Positions 2,036 through 24,754 of a stretch of DNA of 31,683 bases are shown one piece after another (positions within the stretch are counted from its first letter, which is position 1; each line of letters begins with the position of its first letter). Source of the DNA: a virus. Lineage: Duplodnaviria > Heunggongvirae > Uroviricota > Caudoviricetes. The notes beneath the pieces were generated by a model. It was not told the origin of the DNA. It worked only from the letters and a program-made list of their open reading frames with translations, and did no database searches. The stretch lies in the IMG/VR virus record IMGVR_UViG_2711768054_000002; one strand, 5' to 3'. Position numbers and translations under genes: made by a program.

Positions 2036-2532
2036 CAGTGATGACGCTCAATCTCGTCGAAAAACAGCCAGCAACTATGCGCCGGATAATTGGTAAGCAT
2101 CTGGCCGTCCCTCGCTGGCAGGATACATGTGATTATTATAATCAGATGATGGAGCGCGAACGGTTAACGGTTTGCTTTCATGCGCAGTTAAAACAGCGTC
2201 ACGCAACGATGCGTTTTGAAGAAATGAACGACGTCGAACGTGAACGGCTGGTTTGTGCAATTGATGAATTGCGTGGGGCATTCTCAAAACGCCGTCAGGT
2301 TGGCGCAAGTGAGTATGCATATATTAGTTTTTTAACAGTCAGTCAGCGTCGTACTTTATTTATGCATGCCGGATTGACTGAAAAAGAATTCAACCAGCCA
2401 TACTGGCGAATTAATGAAGAGTCATGTTACTGGCGTGATGCTTTATTCCGTGCATTACGTGAATTATTCAGCCTGTTTGAGTATGCACCGACAATTCTGA
2501 CGTCGGTAAAACCAGAGCAATATCTGCATTAA
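2032..2532 (+). CDS. B: Replication protein B (helicase-loader-like)
   Basis: 166 aa, the length of P2 B; position after cox and before A as in P2. Confidence 0.8.
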   Translation: MTVMTLNLVEKQPATMRRIIGKHLAVPRWQDTCDYYNQMMERERLTVCFHAQLKQRHATMRFEEMNDVERERLVCAIDELRGAFSKRRQVGASEYAYISFLTVSQRRTLFMHAGLTEKEFNQPYWRINEESCYWRDALFRALRELFSLFEYAPTILTSVKPEQYLH

Positions 2533-2595
2533 GTAATTAACCAGAGTTTTTAACGCACTTAATCGTGCGGGGCTTCTTTTTGCCTGGAGAAAGTC

Positions 2596-2820
2596 ATGCA
2601 TACAGTTTCTGAAAATCAGTGCGGTAAATACGCATTACTGCTGCAACAGGCCAGAACCGAAGCACAGGCCGACGCTGCGACGCGCTTTTCTTCTCATCTT
2701 GACGCCATGATTCGCCATATCACAAAGGCGGAGTTATCCCGCGTGGAGATAGTCGAGCTGCTCAGTCAGGAGTCGGAAAAATTTCACAATATCGGATTGT
2801 CTCGCGGGGAGGTGCTTTGA
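2596..2820 (+). CDS. Hypothetical early protein (P2 orf80 position)
   Basis: 74-aa ORF with GGAGA SD upstream; position matches P2 orf80. Confidence 0.6.
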
Positions 2821-3122
2821 TGTCCTGTTCTCATTCAGTTGTATTACTGAATAACGCCTTAAAAATCGCCGTTATGAAAAATGGCGATTTGTCTCTTATT
2901 CAACTTTGTCTTGATAAAGAAAAACGCGACATAACTGAATCTGTTATCGCGATTTATCAGAATGAATTAAACCTCCTGTCTGATGTGGTCAATTTACTTG
3001 TTAAACGCGCTGTATTTCATAAGCAAATTTCATCCGTGGATGAACTGACAAAATTAACGACAGAAATCGCCAGCTATTGCGCTGATGAATTTAAGAAGCT
3101 GAACGACAAAAGGAGCTGGTAA
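2817..3122 (+). CDS. Hypothetical early protein (P2 orf81 position)
   Basis: 101-aa ORF, start overlaps previous stop (ATGA); visibly AT-richer than neighbours. Confidence 0.6.
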
Positions 3123-3346
3123 TGCCGGACAACATAGATTTTATTCAGGAACAACAGGCTGAATTACTGGAGCGCCAGATTAACGCGGCAAGGGTAAAAC
3201 ATAGCGGTGTTTCTGCGCTGGTTTGCGAAGAGTGTGACGCGCCAATACCTGCTGCCCGTCGTGCAGCTTATCCGTCAGCCACGCGTTGTGTTTCCTGCCA
3301 GTCAGTCTTTGAAGCAAAAAACAAGCATTACCGGAGAATGGCATGA
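3122..3346 (+). CDS. TraR/DksA-family C4 zinc-finger protein (P2 orf82-like)
   Basis: 74 aa with CEEC...x17...CVSC four-cysteine motif typical of the TraR/DksA zinc finger. Confidence 0.8.
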   Translation: MPDNIDFIQEQQAELLERQINAARVKHSGVSALVCEECDAPIPAARRAAYPSATRCVSCQSVFEAKNKHYRRMA

Positions 3347-3618
3347 GTATTCGTATCGAAATTGGCGAACGTTATGTCGTTACCAGTGACAGCTTTCAGT
3401 TTATTCTCCACGAGAAAAAGAGAGCGGAAAGCGGTAAAAACGCCGGTCAGGAATGGCTGGCGGTGGTTGGTTATTACCCGAAATTAAGCCAGCTCGTTTC
3501 CGGCCTGATGCATCACGATATTCTGACCGGAAGCGCAAAGTCTTTTGCTGATTTAAACGCGCAGGTTGAGCAACTCAGCAAGCGTTGTTCTGAGGCTTTT
3601 GGCTCATATGGCCGTTAA
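3343..3618 (+). CDS. Hypothetical early protein (P2 orf83 position)
   Basis: 91-aa ORF, translationally coupled to neighbours. Confidence 0.6.
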   Translation: MSIRIEIGERYVVTSDSFQFILHEKKRAESGKNAGQEWLAVVGYYPKLSQLVSGLMHHDILTGSAKSFADLNAQVEQLSKRCSEAFGSYGR

Positions 3619-5875
3619 AGCCTCCGGGCGTTTTGTCCCTCCGTCAGCATTTGCCGCAGGCACCGGTAAGGCGTTTACCGGTGCTTATGCATGGAACGCG
3701 CCACGCGAGGCTGTCGGGCGCGAAAGACCTCTTACACGTGACGAGATGCGTCAGGTGCAAGGTGTTTTATCCACGATTAATCGCCTGCCTTACTTTTTGC
3801 GCTCGCTGTTTACTTCACGCTATGACTACATCCGGCGCAATAAAAGCCCGGTGCACGGGTTTTATTTCCTCACATCCACTTTTCAGCGTCGTTTATGGCC
3901 GCGCATTGAGCGTGTTAATCAGCGCCATGAAATGAACACCGACGCGTCGTTGCTGTTTCTGGCAGAGCGTGACCACTATGCGCGCCTGCCTGGAATGAAT
4001 GACAAGGAGCTGAAAAAGTTTGCCGCCCGTATCTCATCGCAGCTTTTCATAATGTATGAGGAACTCTGCGATGCCTGGGTGGATGCGCATGGCGAGAAAG
4101 AATCGCTGTTTACGGATGAGGCGCAGGCTCACCTGTATGGTCATGTTGCTGGCGCTGCACGTGCTTTCAATATTTCCCCGCTCTACTGGAAAAAATACCG
4201 TAAAGGGCAGATGACCACGAGGCAGGCATATTCTGCCATTGCCCGTCTGTTTAACGATGAGTGGTGGACTCATCAGCTTAAAGGCCAGCGTATGCGCTGG
4301 CATGAGGCGTTACTGATTGCTGTCGGGGAGGTCAATAAAGACCGTTCTCCTTATGCCAGTAAACATGCCATTCGTGATGTGCGTGCGCGCCGCCAGGCAA
4401 ATCTGGAATTTCTTAAATCGTGTGACCTTGAAAACAAGGAAACCGGCGAGCGCATCGACCTTATCAGTAAGATGATGGGCAGTATTTCTAATCCCGAAAT
4501 TCGCCGGATGGAGCTGATGAACACCATCGCCGGTATTGAGCGTTACGCTGCCGCAGAGGGTGATGTGGGGATGTTTATCACGCTGACCGCGCCGTCAAAG
4601 TATCACCCGACACGTCAGGTCAGAAAAGGCGAAAGTAAAACCGTCCAGCTAAATCACGGCTGGAATGATGAGGCATTTAATCCAAAGGATGCGCAGCGTT
4701 ATCTCTGCCGTATCTGGAGCCTGATGCGCACGGCATTCAAGGATAATGATTTACAGGCCTACGGTTTGCGTGTTGTTGAACCACACCACGACGGAACGCC
4801 GCACTGGCATATGATGCTTTTTTGTAATCCACGCCAGCGTAACCAGATTATTGAAATCATGCGTCGCTATGCGCTCAAAGAGGATGGCGACGAAAGAGGA
4901 GCCGCGCGAAACCGTTTTCAGGCAAAACACCTTAACCGGGGCGGTGCTGCGGGATATATCGCGAAATACATTTCAAAAAATATCGACGGCTATGCACTGG
5001 ATGGTCAGCTCGATAACGATACCGGCAGACCGCTGAAAGATACTGCGGCGGCTGTTACCGCATGGGCGTCAACGTGGCGCATCCCGCAATTTAAAACGGT
5101 TGGCCTGCCGACAATGGGAGCTTACCGTGAGCTACGTAAATTGCCTCGCGGCGTCAGCATTGCTGATGAATTTGACGAACGCGTGGAGGCTGCACGCGCC
5201 GCCGCAGACAGTGGCGATTTTGCGTTGTATATCAGCGCGCAGGGCGGGGCAAATGTCCCGCGCGATTGTCAGACTGTCAGGGTCGCCCGTAGCCCGTCGG
5301 ATGACGTTAACGAATACGAGGAAGAAGTCGAGAGAGTGGTCGGCATTTACGCGCCGCATCTCGGCGCGCGTCATATTCATATCACCAGAACGACGGACTG
5401 GCGCATTGTGCCGAAAGTTCCGGTCGTTGAGCCTTTGACTTTAAAAAGCGGCATCGCCGCGCCTCGGAGTCCTGTCAATAACTGTGGAAAGGTCACCGGT
5501 TGTGATACTTCGTTACCGGCTCCCACACCTTCTGAGCACGCCGCAGCAGTGCTTAATCTGGTTGATGACGGTGTTATCGAATGGAATGACCCGGAGGTTG
5601 TGAGGGCGCTCAGGGGCGCATTAAAACACGGCCTGAGAACGCCAAATCGTCAGCAAAGAAACGGAAGCCCGTTAAAACCACATGAAATTGCACCATCGGC
5701 CAGACTGACCCGGTCGGAAAGAATGCAAATTACCCGTATCCGCGTTGACCTTGCTCAGAACGGTATCAGGCCGCAGCGATGGGAGCTTGAGGCGTTGGCG
5801 CGCGGGGCAACAGTAATTTATGACGGTGAGCGGTTTAGTTATGCTGTAAAAGACGATTGGGTGATGTTTTCTTAA
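3608..5875 (+). CDS. A: Replication initiation endonuclease A (rolling-circle initiator)
   Basis: Track ORF starts at TTG 3566; the ATG at 3608 gives MAVKASGRFVPP, the P2 gpA-like N-terminus; contains HWHMMLF and YIAKYISK motifs of this family. The P2 origin lies inside A; I did not locate it here. Confidence 0.92.
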   Translation: MAVKASGRFVPPSAFAAGTGKAFTGAYAWNAPREAVGRERPLTRDEMRQVQGVLSTINRLPYFLRSLFTSRYDYIRRNKSPVHGFYFLTSTFQRRLWPRIERVNQRHEMNTDASLLFLAERDHYARLPGMNDKELKKFAARISSQLFIMYEELCDAWVDAHGEKESLFTDEAQAHLYGHVAGAARAFNISPLYWKKYRKGQMTTRQAYSAIARLFNDEWWTHQLKGQRMRWHEALLIAVGEVNKDRSPYASKHAIRDVRARRQANLEFLKSCDLENKETGERIDLISKMMGSISNPEIRRMELMNTIAGIERYAAAEGDVGMFITLTAPSKYHPTRQVRKGESKTVQLNHGWNDEAFNPKDAQRYLCRIWSLMRTAFKDNDLQAYGLRVVEPHHDGTPHWHMMLFCNPRQRNQIIEIMRRYALKEDGDERGAARNRFQAKHLNRGGAAGYIAKYISKNIDGYALDGQLDNDTGRPLKDTAAAVTAWASTWRIPQFKTVGLPTMGAYRELRKLPRGVSIADEFDERVEAARAAADSGDFALYISAQGGANVPRDCQTVRVARSPSDDVNEYEEEVERVVGIYAPHLGARHIHITRTTDWRIVPKVPVVEPLTLKSGIAAPRSPVNNCGKVTGCDTSLPAPTPSEHAAAVLNLVDDGVIEWNDPEVVRALRGALKHGLRTPNRQQRNGSPLKPHEIAPSARLTRSERMQITRIRVDLAQNGIRPQRWELEALARGATVIYDGERFSYAVKDDWVMFS

Positions 5876-5958
5876 ACTGATGGCATCATGATACATTAAC
5901 AAATCTGAAGCAATGCTTTAGTAGTCGTGCATTAATAACTTATAAGGAATTATTATCG

Positions 5959-7281
5959 ATGAGTGCGTTAAGGGATGAAGTATCTATGAAGGTTGCGTTC
6001 TCTAATGGCATGATAAACAAATTATGCAAAAGTTTTTTTTATAGTCATGGTAAGGAGCAGCCTTGTATTCAAGTCGGTAAAGCATTAGAAGATTTTGCTT
6101 TTTGGCTTGCATATAATGATGAGGAGATTGCAAAATGTGCTAGTAGGTTATTAAAAGCATATGGCCCCCAATTAGGTATAAGTGACCTTCACAATGCGAA
6201 AAGATTATTGTTAGGTTTTTGTTCTGAAGCCTTCAATCGCATTGATGCTGATTTTCTGTCGCTTAATCCTGATAAGATTTGTGTTGATGATATTATAACG
6301 CAAGTTCATAGAAAAAATCTTAGTGAGATGTTTAAGTATTATATACTTTCACGAATAAAATCCTGTCCGTATATTTATAATCTTGGGTGTGCTGGCTTTG
6401 ATGGGAAGCTTGAGCTTAGAGAAAATTTATTTTTATATGGCCCGGGGCTAGGGGTGGAATTACTTTCTGATATTAAAGACAAAACTGACATCAAGGTTCC
6501 TGTTGATTTTTATGATGATGAATATATGCGGCATAAACCAATTGGGAAATATTTTCGACAGTCAAAATCCTGCTTGGTGGTGGCATATGCTTCATCAGAG
6601 GATAAAGCGGTGAAAATGTTTGATAGTTTGTTTGGAGCTTTATGTCTTGCGGTTGATAATCCTTTTGCGATTAATCGAGTTGCTGTTAATAATCTAGTTG
6701 AGTCTTTTGGTGTCGGGAAATATCATGAAAGTGAGTTTCGGGTGAATATTCCGTCTGTATATAATTTAAATATAACGGATTCAGCCTTGGCGATACTTAC
6801 AAAAATACTTTCATCACCTGATAAAAGGATGTTGTCTGCTCTTTCCTTTATAGCGCACGGGTGGAGGGATGACAAACGTGAAAGGTTTTTGAATCAATTT
6901 ATAGCATTGGATGCTATGTATGGAACCAATAATGGTAATAAAAATTCAATTATTGGCGGTGTTTGCAGAGATGCGGCGAAAATTATTGATATTGATTCAA
7001 AAATAGGAATAATCTATGAGCTTAGGTGTAAGTTTGTTCATGGAGATATTTCATCGTTATCTGATAATGATAGCTATCGAAAGTTTATTGATAGCTATGG
7101 CGTGGACCCTATTGTTTCTCTTTTTGAAATTCTTAAAGAATGCGTCCTTAATTATAATGGTACTTACAAAACGCCAAAAGATGTTGGAAAGGCAGATAGG
7201 TCTATTTGCGTTCCTGCTGAGTTGCTTCCAGCGGTTGAGAGGATGATAGCGGAATACAGTGGAGTTAAAAAAACAAACTAA
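5959..7281 (+). CDS. Hypothetical 440-aa cargo protein in the A-Q variable region; R-x4-H (HEPN-like) motif
   Basis: Clean ATG with AAGGA SD; visibly AT-rich relative to flanking phage genes; occupies the P2 tin/old position; motif ELRCKFVHGD at residues 355-364 (nt 7021-7050); no Walker A motif, so not Old-like. Confidence 0.75.
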   Translation: MSALRDEVSMKVAFSNGMINKLCKSFFYSHGKEQPCIQVGKALEDFAFWLAYNDEEIAKCASRLLKAYGPQLGISDLHNAKRLLLGFCSEAFNRIDADFLSLNPDKICVDDIITQVHRKNLSEMFKYYILSRIKSCPYIYNLGCAGFDGKLELRENLFLYGPGLGVELLSDIKDKTDIKVPVDFYDDEYMRHKPIGKYFRQSKSCLVVAYASSEDKAVKMFDSLFGALCLAVDNPFAINRVAVNNLVESFGVGKYHESEFRVNIPSVYNLNITDSALAILTKILSSPDKRMLSALSFIAHGWRDDKRERFLNQFIALDAMYGTNNGNKNSIIGGVCRDAAKIIDIDSKIGIIYELRCKFVHGDISSLSDNDSYRKFIDSYGVDPIVSLFEILKECVLNYNGTYKTPKDVGKADRSICVPAELLPAVERMIAEYSGVKKTN

Positions 7282-7422
7282 AGATGTTCTTTTTAGCCTC
7301 GCCTGCATTAGGTGCATAAATTTGCATTCATTTTCAAATATATCTTTTGACAGCGAGCACCAGAACAGGCGCTTGCCGGGGGGATGATGCACCTGCATTA
7401 AAACCGCCCCATGAAGCGGGCG

Positions 7423-7441
7423 GGCGAGGCGGGGAAAGCAC
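7423..7441. other. cos cohesive-end site
   Basis: Exact GGCGAGGCGGGGAAAGCAC, the P2 19-nt cohesive end as I recall it, in the expected position between the A side and Q. Confidence 0.85.
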
Positions 7442-7685
7442 TGCGCGCAATTGTTCATTTTGTCATATATGTAATTTGATTTGAGTAACTATCCGCATAT
7501 TGTTAACCAAGTGTATAACTGCGATAAAAATGTGTCTATTAGGTTGTATTGACTTGATTTAATATAAGAGAATGGTTAGATTCGTACACGTGGCATTTGG
7601 TTGTGCAATCGTGTTGTTGCACGCTAAATAATAACCTTGTGTTCTTTTTATTTAATTTGCTGGTTAAGTTTTTATAGGAAATAAA

Positions 7686-8687
7686 ATGAGTATTATAATT
7701 GATGAGTCAAATGAAAAAAATAATGGGGTTAATAGTGGGTTACCTGCTTCTCGGGATATTAATACTAGCATTCGTATTTATCAGCAAATTTATCAACATA
7801 TAACGGGAACAACAGAAACAATAAGGCAGAGAACCTCTGAGAATTTACTTATAAATATCGATGAGATAAGAAGCGTTCATCAAAAAATAAATCAATTGTG
7901 TGATGTTCATAATATTATATCGAAAAATGAAACGGTAACTATTTTACATTCAAAAGATAGAAAGGAACAGTTTACCTCTTTTGATAAGTTTGCAATGTCG
8001 AGTAGTGCGGGAAGTAGTCCAACAATTAGTGTAATTTTAAAATATAACTTTGCAATTTTATCGACAGGGGCATCATTACCTAACCACTATGAAGTTACTG
8101 TTAAATTAGCATCAAGAATTGCTATGCAGAAAGAAATGGAAGAAGATGCGCCACCTTTCATTAGGGGGCGTTTTGTTGCATTCATGCTCACCAGTTCAGC
8201 AGAAATAGTTGTTGAATATGCTGATTATGTAGTGGCTAGAGGTTTTATCGAAGCATTTAAAGAATGGGTTGAAGGATGTCAAAGAGTTACAAACAAAATA
8301 CCATTGATACAGCAAGCTCAAAGGATATCGTATTTAATTCCACTGATTATGCGGTTTTCTTTTTCTATATTGATTTTAAGTTATGCACTGTACAATGTTG
8401 GTGAATATATTGATATTGGTGATAAAGAAAGGTTAGTAAAATTTTTAATGCTCTTTCTTGGTGCGTTTTCTATTATCCCATTGTTAGCGGAGCATTTAGG
8501 TGAAGGCCTAGAGAGATTAATTGATGGTTATACTCCAGCATCGTACATTGTATTAAATAAGGGTGATGAGAGGTTGTATGATGAATATAGTAAGAAGCGA
8601 AAGAAGAGTATTTTAAGAGTGGTGTTAAATATAGTTTCAACAGTTGTTCTAGGTATTGTTTCAGCTAGGCTGGACAAATTATTATAA
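7686..8687 (+). CDS. Hypothetical 333-aa membrane cargo protein between cos and Q
   Basis: ATG with AGGA SD; very AT-rich (about 32% GC on one line counted by hand); soluble N-terminal domain, then three hydrophobic segments (ISYLIPLIMRFSFSILILSYALY, LVKFLMLFLGAFSIIPLL, ILRVVLNIVSTVVLGIVSA). Confidence 0.75.
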   Translation: MSIIIDESNEKNNGVNSGLPASRDINTSIRIYQQIYQHITGTTETIRQRTSENLLINIDEIRSVHQKINQLCDVHNIISKNETVTILHSKDRKEQFTSFDKFAMSSSAGSSPTISVILKYNFAILSTGASLPNHYEVTVKLASRIAMQKEMEEDAPPFIRGRFVAFMLTSSAEIVVEYADYVVARGFIEAFKEWVEGCQRVTNKIPLIQQAQRISYLIPLIMRFSFSILILSYALYNVGEYIDIGDKERLVKFLMLFLGAFSIIPLLAEHLGEGLERLIDGYTPASYIVLNKGDERLYDEYSKKRKKSILRVVLNIVSTVVLGIVSARLDKLL

Positions 8688-8850
8688 CTGGAGTTGGCCA
8701 CATTTTATGTGGCCAACGTAACGGCGTGGTAGTGACAGTTTTTTTGCGTCTGAGCGCGTCGTGATGGCATTTAGTCGGCCTGCCGGGGCGTTGGTGTGTC
8801 TGCGGGGTGTTTTGTGCGGTGGTGAGCGTGTGAGGCCGTGATGACGGGTT

Positions 8851-8874
8851 GTAAAAAAGCCGCCCGCAGGCGGC
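8851..8874 (-). terminator. Rho-independent terminator downstream of Q
   Basis: GCCGCC-CGCA-GGCGGC hairpin (8859-8874) followed on the minus strand by a U6 tract (complement of AAAAAA 8853-8858), just past the Q stop. Confidence 0.7.
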
Positions 8875-8879
8875 GATGT

Positions 8880-9914
8880 TCAGCCGTTGTCAGTGTCCAG
8901 TGAGTAGTTTTTAAAGCGGATGACCTCCTGACCGAGCCAGCCGTTTATCTCGCGGATCCTGTCCTGTAGCGGAATAAGCTCATTGCGGACAAAGACCTTT
9001 GCCACTTTCTCAATATCACCCAGCGACCCGACGTTCTCCGGCTTGCCGCCCATCAACTGAAAGGGGATGCGGTGCGCATCCAGCAGGTCAGCGGCGCTGG
9101 CTTTTTTGATATTAAAAAAATCGTCCTTCGTTGCCACTTCACTGAGCGGGATAATTTTAATGCCGTCGGCTTTCCCCTGTGGGGCATAGAGAAACAGATT
9201 TTTAAAGTTGTTGCGGCCTTTCGACTTAACCATGTTTTCGCGAAGCATTTCGATATCGTTGCGATCCTGCACGGCATCGGTGACGTACATGATGTATCCA
9301 GCATGTGCGCCGTTTTCGTAATACTTGCGGCGGAACAGCGTGGCCGATTCATTCAGCCAGGCAGAGTTAAGGGCGCTGAGATATTCCGGCAGGCCGTACA
9401 GCTCCTGATTAATATCCGGCTCCAGCAGGTGAAACACGGAGCCGGGCGCGAAAGGTGTCGGCTCGTTGAAGGACGGCACCCACCAGTAAACATCCTCCTC
9501 AACACCACGGCGGGTATATTTTGCCGGTGAGGTTTCCAGTCTGATGACCTTACCGGTGGTGCTGTAGCGCTTTTCCAGAAACGCATTACCGAACACCAGA
9601 AAATCCAGCACAAAGCGGCTGAAATCCTGCTGGGAAAGCCACGGATGCGGGATAAATGTCGAGGCCAGAATATTGCGTTTAACGTAAATCGGTGAGCTGT
9701 GATGCACGGTAGCACGCAGGCTTTTTGCCAGACCGGTAAAGCTGATTGGTGGCTCATACCATCTGCCGTTACTGATGCATTCGACGTAATCCAGAATGTC
9801 ACGGCGGTCGAGTACCGGCACCGGCTCACCAAAGGTGAATGCCTCCATTTTCGGGGCGCTGGCGGTCATTTTTTTTGCCGCAGGTTGCGGTGTTTTCCCT
9901 TTTTTCTTGCTCAT
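8880..9914 (-). CDS. Q: Portal protein Q
   Basis: 344 aa, matching P2 gpQ in length and position; start overlaps the P stop. Confidence 0.93.
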   Translation of the reverse strand: MSKKKGKTPQPAAKKMTASAPKMEAFTFGEPVPVLDRRDILDYVECISNGRWYEPPISFTGLAKSLRATVHHSSPIYVKRNILASTFIPHPWLSQQDFSRFVLDFLVFGNAFLEKRYSTTGKVIRLETSPAKYTRRGVEEDVYWWVPSFNEPTPFAPGSVFHLLEPDINQELYGLPEYLSALNSAWLNESATLFRRKYYENGAHAGYIMYVTDAVQDRNDIEMLRENMVKSKGRNNFKNLFLYAPQGKADGIKIIPLSEVATKDDFFNIKKASAADLLDAHRIPFQLMGGKPENVGSLGDIEKVAKVFVRNELIPLQDRIREINGWLGQEVIRFKNYSLDTDNG

Positions 9915-23368: not shown

Positions 23369-24754
23369 ATGGATAGTGTCAGTAGTGTTGAGCGTTTAAG
23401 AACAAAAGCTTTTTATCAGTTGCTTGTGGATAGGCTTGGAACTGAGGCCTGGGCTGCTCGCAAAGCTGCATATTTCAAGCGCATAAGAGAGAAGGAGGCT
23501 AAGTTTAACATCAATCTGCCGATAGAGCCCCAGCTCTTCATACCAGCAGAAGATGACATCGACTGGTACATTCTGGCGTCGTATCTGTCTCATGATTTTC
23601 CATATAGTGATGCTACTTACAGCAGCAGACGTATCTACCCCTATGCTATGGCCATCGGAGCTGTTGCAGACCAGCTTCGCAAAGTCCCATACGTCGATGA
23701 TGTTCTGGACAAAATGCTAGCAAATAACAATAAACCAGAAACTCAAATTTTTGAGCTGCTGACGGCATCGTTCTACCTAAAGAACGGCTATGAGGTTGCC
23801 TTCATCCCAGAAAGCAGCATTGTTTGGCCCGATGGAAAGACCAAAAAATCACCGGATATGCTTGTCAAGTTAGGTGATCTGGAGTTCTACGTCGAGTGCA
23901 AAAGGTCGGATAAGCAAACCAAGTACTCAAAGACAGAAGAGCAAGCCTGGGCCAACATCTGGCATCAATTGAGCCAACATATGCTCAAAGTCGCACCATG
24001 GAACATTGTCGATATAATTTTCCATGAGCAGGTCGCCAGTGTGACTCCGGCAGACGTTATTAAAGCGGTGAATCTAGCCATTAAAGGGGGGACGGGAAAA
24101 GCTAATGAAGGTTCAATCAGTGTGGGAATACGAGCCATCGACAAATTAGGTCTCAGACGTCACTACAGAAAATTTTCAGTCAGAGCCAATAGCCCACAGC
24201 ATGAATTGCTGGTATTTGGGGATCTAGATAGCAATGAGAAACGAAGTATCTCGACTATCGCTCAGAGAGTTATTCGTCCTGGCACCAATAACGATATTCT
24301 CAACATTTTTGTAGAGGATGTTGCAAAGTGCGTTGGAGCTCAGTGGCGCTGCGATCATGAGATTTCTCTTGGCCTCAGATCCAAGCATTTCAAGAGCTTG
24401 CTCAATGATGGAGTCATGCAGATTCCCCCTGATCGTGCTGGCGTGGTGCATATTTGGTATGAGACTTGCGAAGGCATAGATATTGAAGAACTACGTAGGG
24501 ATAAAAACATGGAGCATATCTCGGCCTACGATGCCTCTAAAACAACTGTGTTGGGTGCTTTCCTGCATGCCGTTAATTATTACCCATTAGAGGACAACTA
24601 TGAGTGGGCTGAGACTGTTCAAGACTTTGCCCGTGTCCCGGATTTGATGGGGCTCTTCCTTAGACAGCCATTGATGCTTACATCTGACTCGACGCGTGGG
24701 GTCGAAGGTGTCACACATTGGGAGCAAGATAAGGCCGCAAAAAGCATGCGTTGA
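23369..24754 (+). CDS. Hypothetical 461-aa cargo protein in the Z/fun position; PD-x(n)-E-x-K nuclease-like motif
   Basis: Lies between G and FI where P2 carries Z/fun; lower GC than the tail genes; motif SPD(163)MLVKLGDLE(172)FYVE(176)CK(178) at nt 23849-23902. Confidence 0.75.
   Translation: MDSVSSVERLRTKAFYQLLVDRLGTEAWAARKAAYFKRIREKEAKFNINLPIEPQLFIPAEDDIDWYILASYLSHDFPYSDATYSSRRIYPYAMAIGAVADQLRKVPYVDDVLDKMLANNNKPETQIFELLTASFYLKNGYEVAFIPESSIVWPDGKTKKSPDMLVKLGDLEFYVECKRSDKQTKYSKTEEQAWANIWHQLSQHMLKVAPWNIVDIIFHEQVASVTPADVIKAVNLAIKGGTGKANEGSISVGIRAIDKLGLRRHYRKFSVRANSPQHELLVFGDLDSNEKRSISTIAQRVIRPGTNNDILNIFVEDVAKCVGAQWRCDHEISLGLRSKHFKSLLNDGVMQIPPDRAGVVHIWYETCEGIDIEELRRDKNMEHISAYDASKTTVLGAFLHAVNYYPLEDNYEWAETVQDFARVPDLMGLFLRQPLMLTSDSTRGVEGVTHWEQDKAAKSMR

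Follow-up and report, generated by a model that had tools for sequence, protein, structure and literature searches.

Introduction

In P2-like phages the interval between the replication gene A and the portal gene Q is a known site of accessory genes. This gpA-gpQ or 'cos-proximal' region, with old/tin of P2 as prototype, was described as a defence hotspot by Rousset et al. 2022 (PMC9122126) and in a 2026 study in Nucleic Acids Research (PMC13586616). In the available parts of both papers, A-Q is treated as one locus and cos is not used to divide the cargo; many loci of the hotspot in Rousset et al. carry more than one system. Here, we report on this interval (positions 5876-8879) in the IMG/VR record IMGVR_UViG_2711768054_000002, a stretch of 31,683 nucleotides that is called the window in the following. 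The interval holds two uncharacterised genes, gene 1 and gene 2, with cos between them. It is likely the accessory hotspot between gpA and gpQ in a complete P2-like prophage, split by cos into two separate cargo slots.

For the part between cos and Q, the cosL-gpQ position was put forward as an insertion hotspot in the 1990s, with the retrons Ec67 and Ec86 and phiCTX as examples (cited in PMC5694545). In a prophage related to 186, Ec67 and Ec86 replace the DNA between cos and a terminator (Dodd and Egan 1996, via PMC5694545), and phiCTX is cited for the same site (Nakayama 1999, via PMC5694545). Four open reading frames (ORF1-4) were reported between cosL and gpQ of phiRSY1, an isolated P2-like phage of Ralstonia (PMC5694545). 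A cos core of 55 bp is, according to the same source, shared by P2-family and P4 elements (Ziermann and Calendar 1990, cited in PMC5694545). The P4 satellite hotspot next to cos, in the psu-int region (Rousset et al. 2022), likewise has cargo adjoining this shared cos core, but it belongs to another element and has other flanking genes. Cargo exchange between P2 and P4 is reported to occur almost never.

The locus in the window agrees with the gpA-gpQ hotspot in its position and in the swapping of AT-rich cargo between near-identical backbones, and is here divided at cos. Transcription of old and tin in P2 starts at a promoter near cos and proceeds leftward, whereas gene 1 has the same orientation as A. 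Gene 2 fills a slot of the type described by Dodd and Egan, from the left cohesive end to the portal-operon terminator. In contrast to Ec67 and Ec86, the P2-type spacer and the tQ terminator were kept 3' of gene 2 and not replaced, and the cargo is a different, uncharacterised single gene.

Results and discussion

Division of the interval by cos

The window is a complete P2-like (Peduovirus) prophage of Escherichia coli and essentially the same as the prophage in E. coli X14-3. All essential P2 genes from int to ogr were present with amino acid (aa) identities of 88-100 % to P2; diverged were int (53 %), C (50 %) and cox (35 %), and no others. The terminase genes P and M were intact. The gpA-gpQ interval holds variable accessory genes in otherwise syntenic prophages, which is the mark of a hotspot. 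The sequence-only reading had noted AT-rich DNA upstream of each of the two genes, and the base composition agreed with this: the GC content was 31 % at 5876-5958 and 30 % at 7450-7685 versus 51 % in the whole window. Both island ORFs were AT-rich as well, with 33-36 % GC.

The 19-nt cohesive end of P2, GGCGAGGCGGGGAAAGCAC, had a single exact match in the window at 7423-7441, identical to the annotated cosL/cosR of P2 (NC_001895); in shuffled sequence, no match is expected. The P2 flanks were kept around it, TGCATTAAAACC with the hairpin to the left and TGCGCGC to the right (Table 1). Gene 1 ends 142 bp left of cos and gene 2 starts 245 bp right of it, thus the earlier placement of cos between the two island genes was confirmed. 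Because P2 DNA is cut at cos (NC_001895), gene 1 would lie at the right and gene 2 at the left virion end, as follows from the established cos biology of P2. As to the order in which the ends of P2 DNA are packaged or injected, the literature offered nothing usable, and no argument was built on it. In an RNA fold, 7297-7304 paired with the start of cos; this complementarity was absent from the aligned P2 and treated as chance. A variant cohesive end with three changes, GGCGTGGCGGGGATAGCAT, was shared by P2-like prophages of Yersinia enterocolitica (loci L131 and L134, 7577-7595) and Pantoea (loci L137 and L138, 5624-5642).

Among 81 diverse P2/P4-type cos loci from IMG/VR, conservation spanned positions -35 to +26 relative to cos, a stretch that is intact in the window. 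Two TGCAY repeats were located at -35 and -29; the sole conserved feature further to the left was a set of three TGCAY repeats near -100 to -124. Right of +26 nothing was conserved in these loci save a common spacer, and for this reason the recognisable cos signal is one-sided. This one-sidedness plausibly explains why the Q-side tolerates insertions so near the cut: an insertion at +27 would be tolerated because all conserved cos elements, the TGCAY repeats, the hairpin and the cohesive end, lie on the A-side or within +26. The TGCAY repeats may constitute a candidate terminase-binding element, perhaps with sites for the terminase small subunit.

The gene 2 module was recognised by alignment to P2 and to an ST131 prophage, which carries gene 1 only. 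It is a block of 1.26 kb (7449-8708) that starts right after TGCGCGC, 7 bases past the cohesive end, and 3' of it the P2 spacer and the tQ terminator resume. Foreign DNA is therefore present between the left cohesive end and the portal-operon terminator, in the cosL-Q slot. The use of this slot was surveyed in a sample of 120 IMG/VR loci with cos and its next seven bases, in about 93 of which Q comes next. Of the latter, about 86 had the Q stop codon 157-173 bp from cos; seven (about 8 %) had 0.9-3.2 kb of AT-rich cargo between cos and Q, starting at the identical base after TGCGCGC. These seven inserts comprised a type IV retron (reverse transcriptase and a protein with two transmembrane helices), Drt2 (DRT2), Avs5, a PD-T4-4/HEC-02-like ATPase pair, PDC-S02 and unknown proteins. 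The same junction was used by at least eight other cargos in different prophages.

Independence of the two cargo genes

A functional pairing of gene 1 and gene 2 had been left open by the sequence-only reading, with strict co-occurrence named as its expected signature. Of 5426 complete E. coli genomes surveyed, 46 contained gene 1, 10 the gene 2 module and a single one both; strict co-occurrence thus failed. Random assortment among about 2948 P2-type places predicts about 0.16 joint loci, so the one locus seen is unremarkable. The gene 2 module, itself 99.3-99.8 % identical, was present beside at least seven different A-side cargos. The partners included PDC-S06 (AAA_13 ATPase), an AbiP2 reverse transcriptase on the opposite strand (HKUOPY1), PDC-S39/DUF7380, DUF3850 sets, a mixed set, or no annotated gene at all; DUF4238 and another hypothetical protein were extra partners in Table S5A of Rousset et al. 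2022 (PMC9122126). Relatives of gene 1 (61-100 % identical) always lay between A and cos in 17 IMG/VR loci, with no gene, a 156-aa protein, DUF2188, a SIR2 protein (PDC-S25) or a three-gene set on the Q-side. A gene 2 relative was never beside them in these 17 loci, unless the locus belonged to the same lineage. In 18 further loci, the relatives of gene 2 had no conserved neighbour. Judged by these genome comparisons, gene 1 and gene 2 are not one system.

The view of the two genes as separate modules, as put forward in the earlier reading, is hence borne out by comparison of genomes. Its argument from the position of cos did not hold: in the lysogen the DNA is contiguous, and the position of cos by itself is uninformative on transcription. 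The genes, called novel in that reading, are not unrecorded; both were already contained in Table S5A of Rousset et al. 2022.

In draft genomes, decayed copies of the gene 1/gene 2 lineage with large deletions were also observed (loci L185, L188 and L193). One of the ten complete genomes carrying gene 2, E. coli H9, had this gene cut by IS1A (locus L009, 5237-6776).

Recombination at cos

Recombination around cos had been suggested as a route for cargo exchange. This was supported by blocks of near-identity that stop exactly at cos+26. In a comparison of a locus carrying both genes with one carrying gene 1 only, the left 5.49 kb up to cos+26 differed at 3 positions (99.945 % identity), while the right 2.5 kb were 97.3 % identical; the switch occurs at cos. 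The prophage of DAX4 had zero mismatches to the window solely in 5501-7448, and the prophage of STN0717-20 was near-identical solely in 1-1900 and 7449-~8880. Elsewhere, the backbone was 1-4 % diverged. The final ~370 bp of gpA are part of the near-identical block that moves with gene 1 (0 mismatches to DAX4 from ~5501). In the bin 8501-9000, 3 mismatches in 500 aligned bases were counted to STN0717-20 versus 14 in 262 to DAX4, and this copy of the cos-to-Q spacer moves with the gene 2 module.

Since near-identity is confined to 5501-7448 and 7449-~8880 within a mosaic backbone, the cargo moves as short patches, with cos+26 as the boundary common to both. Reassortment of the two cargos by one crossover anywhere in the genome together with cos cleavage was considered and rejected; the short near-identical patches fit a local patch exchange better. 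The two modules are probably gained, lost and swapped independently through recombination. One breakpoint lies at the cos core and the other in the 3' part of A or in the spacer or Q.

Gene products

The A-side slot, which extends from the stop codon of A to ~130 bp before cos, is the place classically taken by old/tin and the predicted right virion end. It carries gene 1, whose protein combines an alpha/beta region at the N-terminus with a HEPN domain at the C-terminus (~residues 274-400; AlphaFold model with a predicted local distance difference test score, pLDDT, of 81). The C-terminus has the all-alpha HEPN fold and an Rx4-6H motif, R356-CKFV-H361, in which R356 did not vary across 26 homologues and H361 showed at least 90 % conservation. 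These homologues range from Enterobacteriaceae to Vibrio and Shewanella; a match to a HEPN family of Pfam at E<=10 was obtained for none of the 26. The product is labelled 'HEPN domain-containing' by PGAP, and Table S5A of Rousset et al. 2022 (PMC9122126) lists gene 1 as the single-gene arrangement 'HEPN_Apea'. The 'putative HEPN' assayed in that study, pFR103, was considered as a candidate for gene 1 and rejected as a different protein; an experimental assay of the gene 1 or gene 2 protein was not found in the supplements. The four-helix fold and the Rx4H motif are common to gene 1 and described HEPN proteins (AbiV, the HEPN domain of AbiA, HEPN/MNT toxins, Csm6/Cas13). Unlike these, gene 1 has an N-terminal region of 270 residues before the HEPN domain, and it is without an antitoxin or MNT partner. 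As a single-gene HEPN protein, gene 1 is predicted to act as RNase-type toxin or abortive-infection effector, and its first 270 residues may supply sensing or regulation.

The Q-side slot, which begins exactly 7 bp past the cohesive end and would lie at the left virion end, carries gene 2 together with a 236-bp AT-rich leader of its own. The protein has an N-terminal alpha/beta domain (~residues 25-200) followed by three long hydrophobic helices (213-236, 249-272 and 307-330; structure model with a pLDDT of 76). The family comprises 1014 representatives at 50 % clustering, is nearly uniform in length (~331 aa), bears no annotation and is distributed among Gamma- and Betaproteobacteria. Distant relatives likewise gave no PADLOC match, and fold searches with gene 2 returned nothing specific. 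In Table S5A of Rousset et al. 2022 (PMC9122126), gene 2 is listed as 'hypothetical', beside DUF4238 or another hypothetical protein. Homologues were located between cos and the portal gene in P2-like prophages of Klebsiella, Pantoea and Yersinia, and a homologue in Limnohabitans lies amid HsdM, NERD, Fic and BrnT-type genes. In Yersinia, the homologue is oriented towards cos, and the Q-side slot contains an AAA_15/AAA_21 ATPase as well. A cytoplasmic location of the large domain is suggested by KKRKK, a basic loop that precedes the third helix. Gene 2 is predicted to be a stand-alone inner-membrane protein with a cytoplasmic sensor domain and three membrane helices; our best guess is a single-gene phage-exclusion protein acting at the membrane.

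Transcription signals

A relaxed promoter search yielded only 8/12 matches. The spacer between A and gene 1 contains a weak candidate, TTAACA-17-TAGTAG (5896-5924), and is partly conserved in loci whose gene 1 is merely 62 % identical. Gene 1 may also be read from the A operon. In the leader of gene 2, the candidate TTGATT-17-TAGATT is located at 7554-7582. This leader accompanied gene 2 in all cases, with >99 % identity in 10 genomes, whatever lies upstream, and the homologue in Klebsiella has a good promoter match, TTTACA-18-TATCAT, just after cos. Because the leader always travels along and the Klebsiella match follows cos directly, gene 2 likely has its own promoter. The stem-loop just past the gene 2 stop codon (Table 1) may mark the end of the transcript. 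The leader also contains a palindrome, GTGCAA-N8-TTGCAC (7603-7622, plus strand), that may be an operator. We infer separate transcripts for gene 1 and gene 2, and this remains an inference because no plus-strand terminator lies between the genes and the promoter scans stayed at chance level.

Alternative explanations

Several observations weigh against the proposed organisation. About 60 listed records of isolated P2-like coliphages included none with cargo between cos and Q, and packaging competence with an insertion at +27 is argued from the recurrence of such insertions and from phiRSY1. The probable defence role of both genes is deduced from location and domain logic; neither protein had a Pfam, PADLOC or NCBIfam match, and gene 2 had no PDB match either. 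A scan for consensus promoters ended at chance level, with 13 found and 11.4 expected, and the terminator scan gave no plus-strand intrinsic terminator separating A, gene 1 and gene 2. Exact alleles were also looked up in a larger collection that included draft assemblies, and 24 contigs with the exact gene 2 allele were read. A 440-aa gene 1 was also present on 18 of these. The pair represents a successful circulating lineage and not a single case, and a fitness benefit of the combination is conceivable. This recurrence, the adjacency and shared orientation of both genes, the lack of a plus-strand terminator in the DNA between them, and the HEPN-plus-transmembrane and reverse transcriptase-plus-two-transmembrane pairs known among defence systems would fit one two-component system of a HEPN nuclease and a membrane partner, comparable to sensor-effector pairs, with cos by chance inside its operon. 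The co-occurrence data largely refuted this reading, which is very improbable: gene 2 was missing in 45 of the 46 complete genomes with gene 1, and gene 1 in 9 of the 10 with gene 2. The same gene 1 allele was found on 7 contigs with gene 2 and on 8 without it, the latter with normal cos-Q spacing; the relatives of gene 2 combined a lack of conserved neighbours with many unrelated partner cargos, and those of gene 1 joined a gene 2 relative only within the same lineage. An insertion 7 bp from the cohesive end could also cripple cos, leaving a defective prophage whose genes never come to lie at opposite virion ends. The absence of cos-Q cargo from the isolated phages, the deletions in the three decayed copies and the IS1 insertion into gene 2 of H9 would agree with this, yet all essential P2 genes are intact and the conserved cos region from -130 to +26 is untouched. 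The start of at least eight unrelated cargos at the exact same base in different prophages and the presence of gene 2 relatives in this slot in four genera point to a tolerated site, as does the isolated phage phiRSY1 with its four reported ORFs; a crippled cos is improbable.

The two modules, independent in evolution, might still be co-transcribed here, if gene 1 or the derepressed early A operon reads through cos. No plus-strand terminator-like site was found between 5600 and 8690, and the cos hairpin with its T-run resembles a terminator solely for leftward (minus-strand) transcription. The common orientation of A, gene 1 and gene 2 and the weakness of the promoter candidate in the A-to-gene 1 spacer are in line with such a read-through. 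On the other side, the same 236-bp leader stands behind cargos of either orientation, e.g., the minus-strand AbiP2 in HKUOPY1, and the Klebsiella homologue has its good promoter match directly past cos; we regard co-transcription as rather unlikely. Another view concerns the role of gene 2, which might be no abortive-infection effector, but a membrane protein for superinfection exclusion or another form of lysogenic conversion, e.g., one that blocks injection, or a protein serving the phage itself. This is possible, if on the whole doubtful. As a prophage-encoded inner-membrane protein with no known defence model or informative fold match, gene 2 would suit such a role. The conserved domain of 200 residues and the KKRKK loop, however, predict that the bulk of the protein is cytoplasmic and not periplasmic, non-phage homologues occur amid HsdM, NERD, Fic and BrnT-type genes, and the same slot carries established defence systems elsewhere. 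The division of the interval by cos into two independent cargo slots is the reading that we prefer.

Further features of the prophage

The features of the interval and its anchors are compiled in Table 1. A minus-strand ORF (7057-7458, 133 aa) that overlaps the 3' end of gene 1 and crosses cos was rejected as probably spurious.

Table 1 Features of the gpA-gpQ interval and its flanking genes in the window
Feature	Position	Strand	Remarks
gpA replication endonuclease, left hotspot anchor	3566-5875	+	Pfam Phage_GPA, E=1.5e-121; 96 % aa identity to P2 A
A-to-gene 1 spacer	5876-5958	+	31 % GC; AAGGAA ribosome-binding site at 5944-5949
Gene 1, 440 aa, A-side cargo slot (predicted right virion end)	5959-7281	+	
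Three TGCAY repeats ~10 bp apart, outer A-side part of cos	7304-7327		-119, -110 and -100 from cos
cos core	7388-7448		two TGCAY repeats 7388-7398, hairpin 7404-7423, cohesive end 7423-7441, TGCGCGC 7442-7448
5' part of gene 2 module	7449-7685	+	30 % GC; starts exactly at cos+27
Gene 2, 333 aa, Q-side cargo slot (predicted left virion end)	7686-8687	+	
Perfect 9-bp stem-loop GTTGGCCAC-ATTTTAT-GTGGCCAAC	8693-8717	+	just past gene 2 stop; no U-run; read from sequence
P2-type cos-to-Q spacer kept 3' of gene 2	8709-8879		alignment to P2 and ST131 prophage
tQ terminator of P-Q operon	8859-8874	-	terminator scan
Portal gene Q, right hotspot anchor	8880-9914	-	Pfam Phage_portal; 98.5 % aa identity to P2 Q

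In comparison with the P2 gene set, orf30, fun(Z), orf91, tin and old were absent from the prophage. The position of fun(Z) between G and FI was filled by a different cargo, an ORF of 461 aa (23369-24754, plus strand) with no Pfam or PADLOC match, which constitutes a third uncharacterised accessory gene at a second known hotspot of P2. With int, C and cox only 53, 50 and 35 % identical, the phage is probably heteroimmune to P2. The int/C/cox block (1-1850) had 0 mismatches over 1-1500 and 2 in 1501-2000 to the prophage of STN0717-20. Both related prophages that were fetched, those of DAX4 and STN0717-20, adjoin pflA.

In many finished E. coli chromosomes, gene 1 was placed at 2352-3674 or the match at 2269-4003; such RefSeq records include NZ_CP084055, NZ_AP045787, NZ_CP087564, NZ_CP135653, NZ_AP040168, NZ_AP040215 and NZ_CP124517. 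The record of X14-3 begins at the first base of the prophage gpA. Start-fixing software apparently mistakes the 'replication endonuclease' of P2 for a chromosomal replication gene.

Conclusions

The arrangement adds one more example to an organisation already known and is in itself ordinary P2 biology, with a hotspot mapped in 2022 and a cosL-Q slot proposed in the 1990s. It carries two candidate defence genes, both uncharacterised; as a lead, the family of gene 2 is of greater interest. Tentatively, and with less than an even chance in our estimation, gene 2 might found a new, widespread family of single-protein membrane defence, which P2-like phages from at least four genera keep in the slot 7 bp from the left end of their DNA. 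More broadly, the gpA-gpQ hotspot may consist of two slots parted by a one-sided cos, with independently assorting defence cargos and a recombination boundary fixed at cos+26.

If gpA-gpQ is surveyed as a single locus, two unrelated single-gene modules are merged into one 'arrangement' or 'system', and splitting the locus at cos+26 would lead to cleaner system definitions. The mechanism of cargo swapping still needs elucidating according to the 2026 study (PMC13586616); the sharp, recurrent breakpoint at cos+26 together with the one-sided cos offers a concrete handle on it. Both cargo genes, and above all the gene 2 family, are cheap candidates for phage defence.

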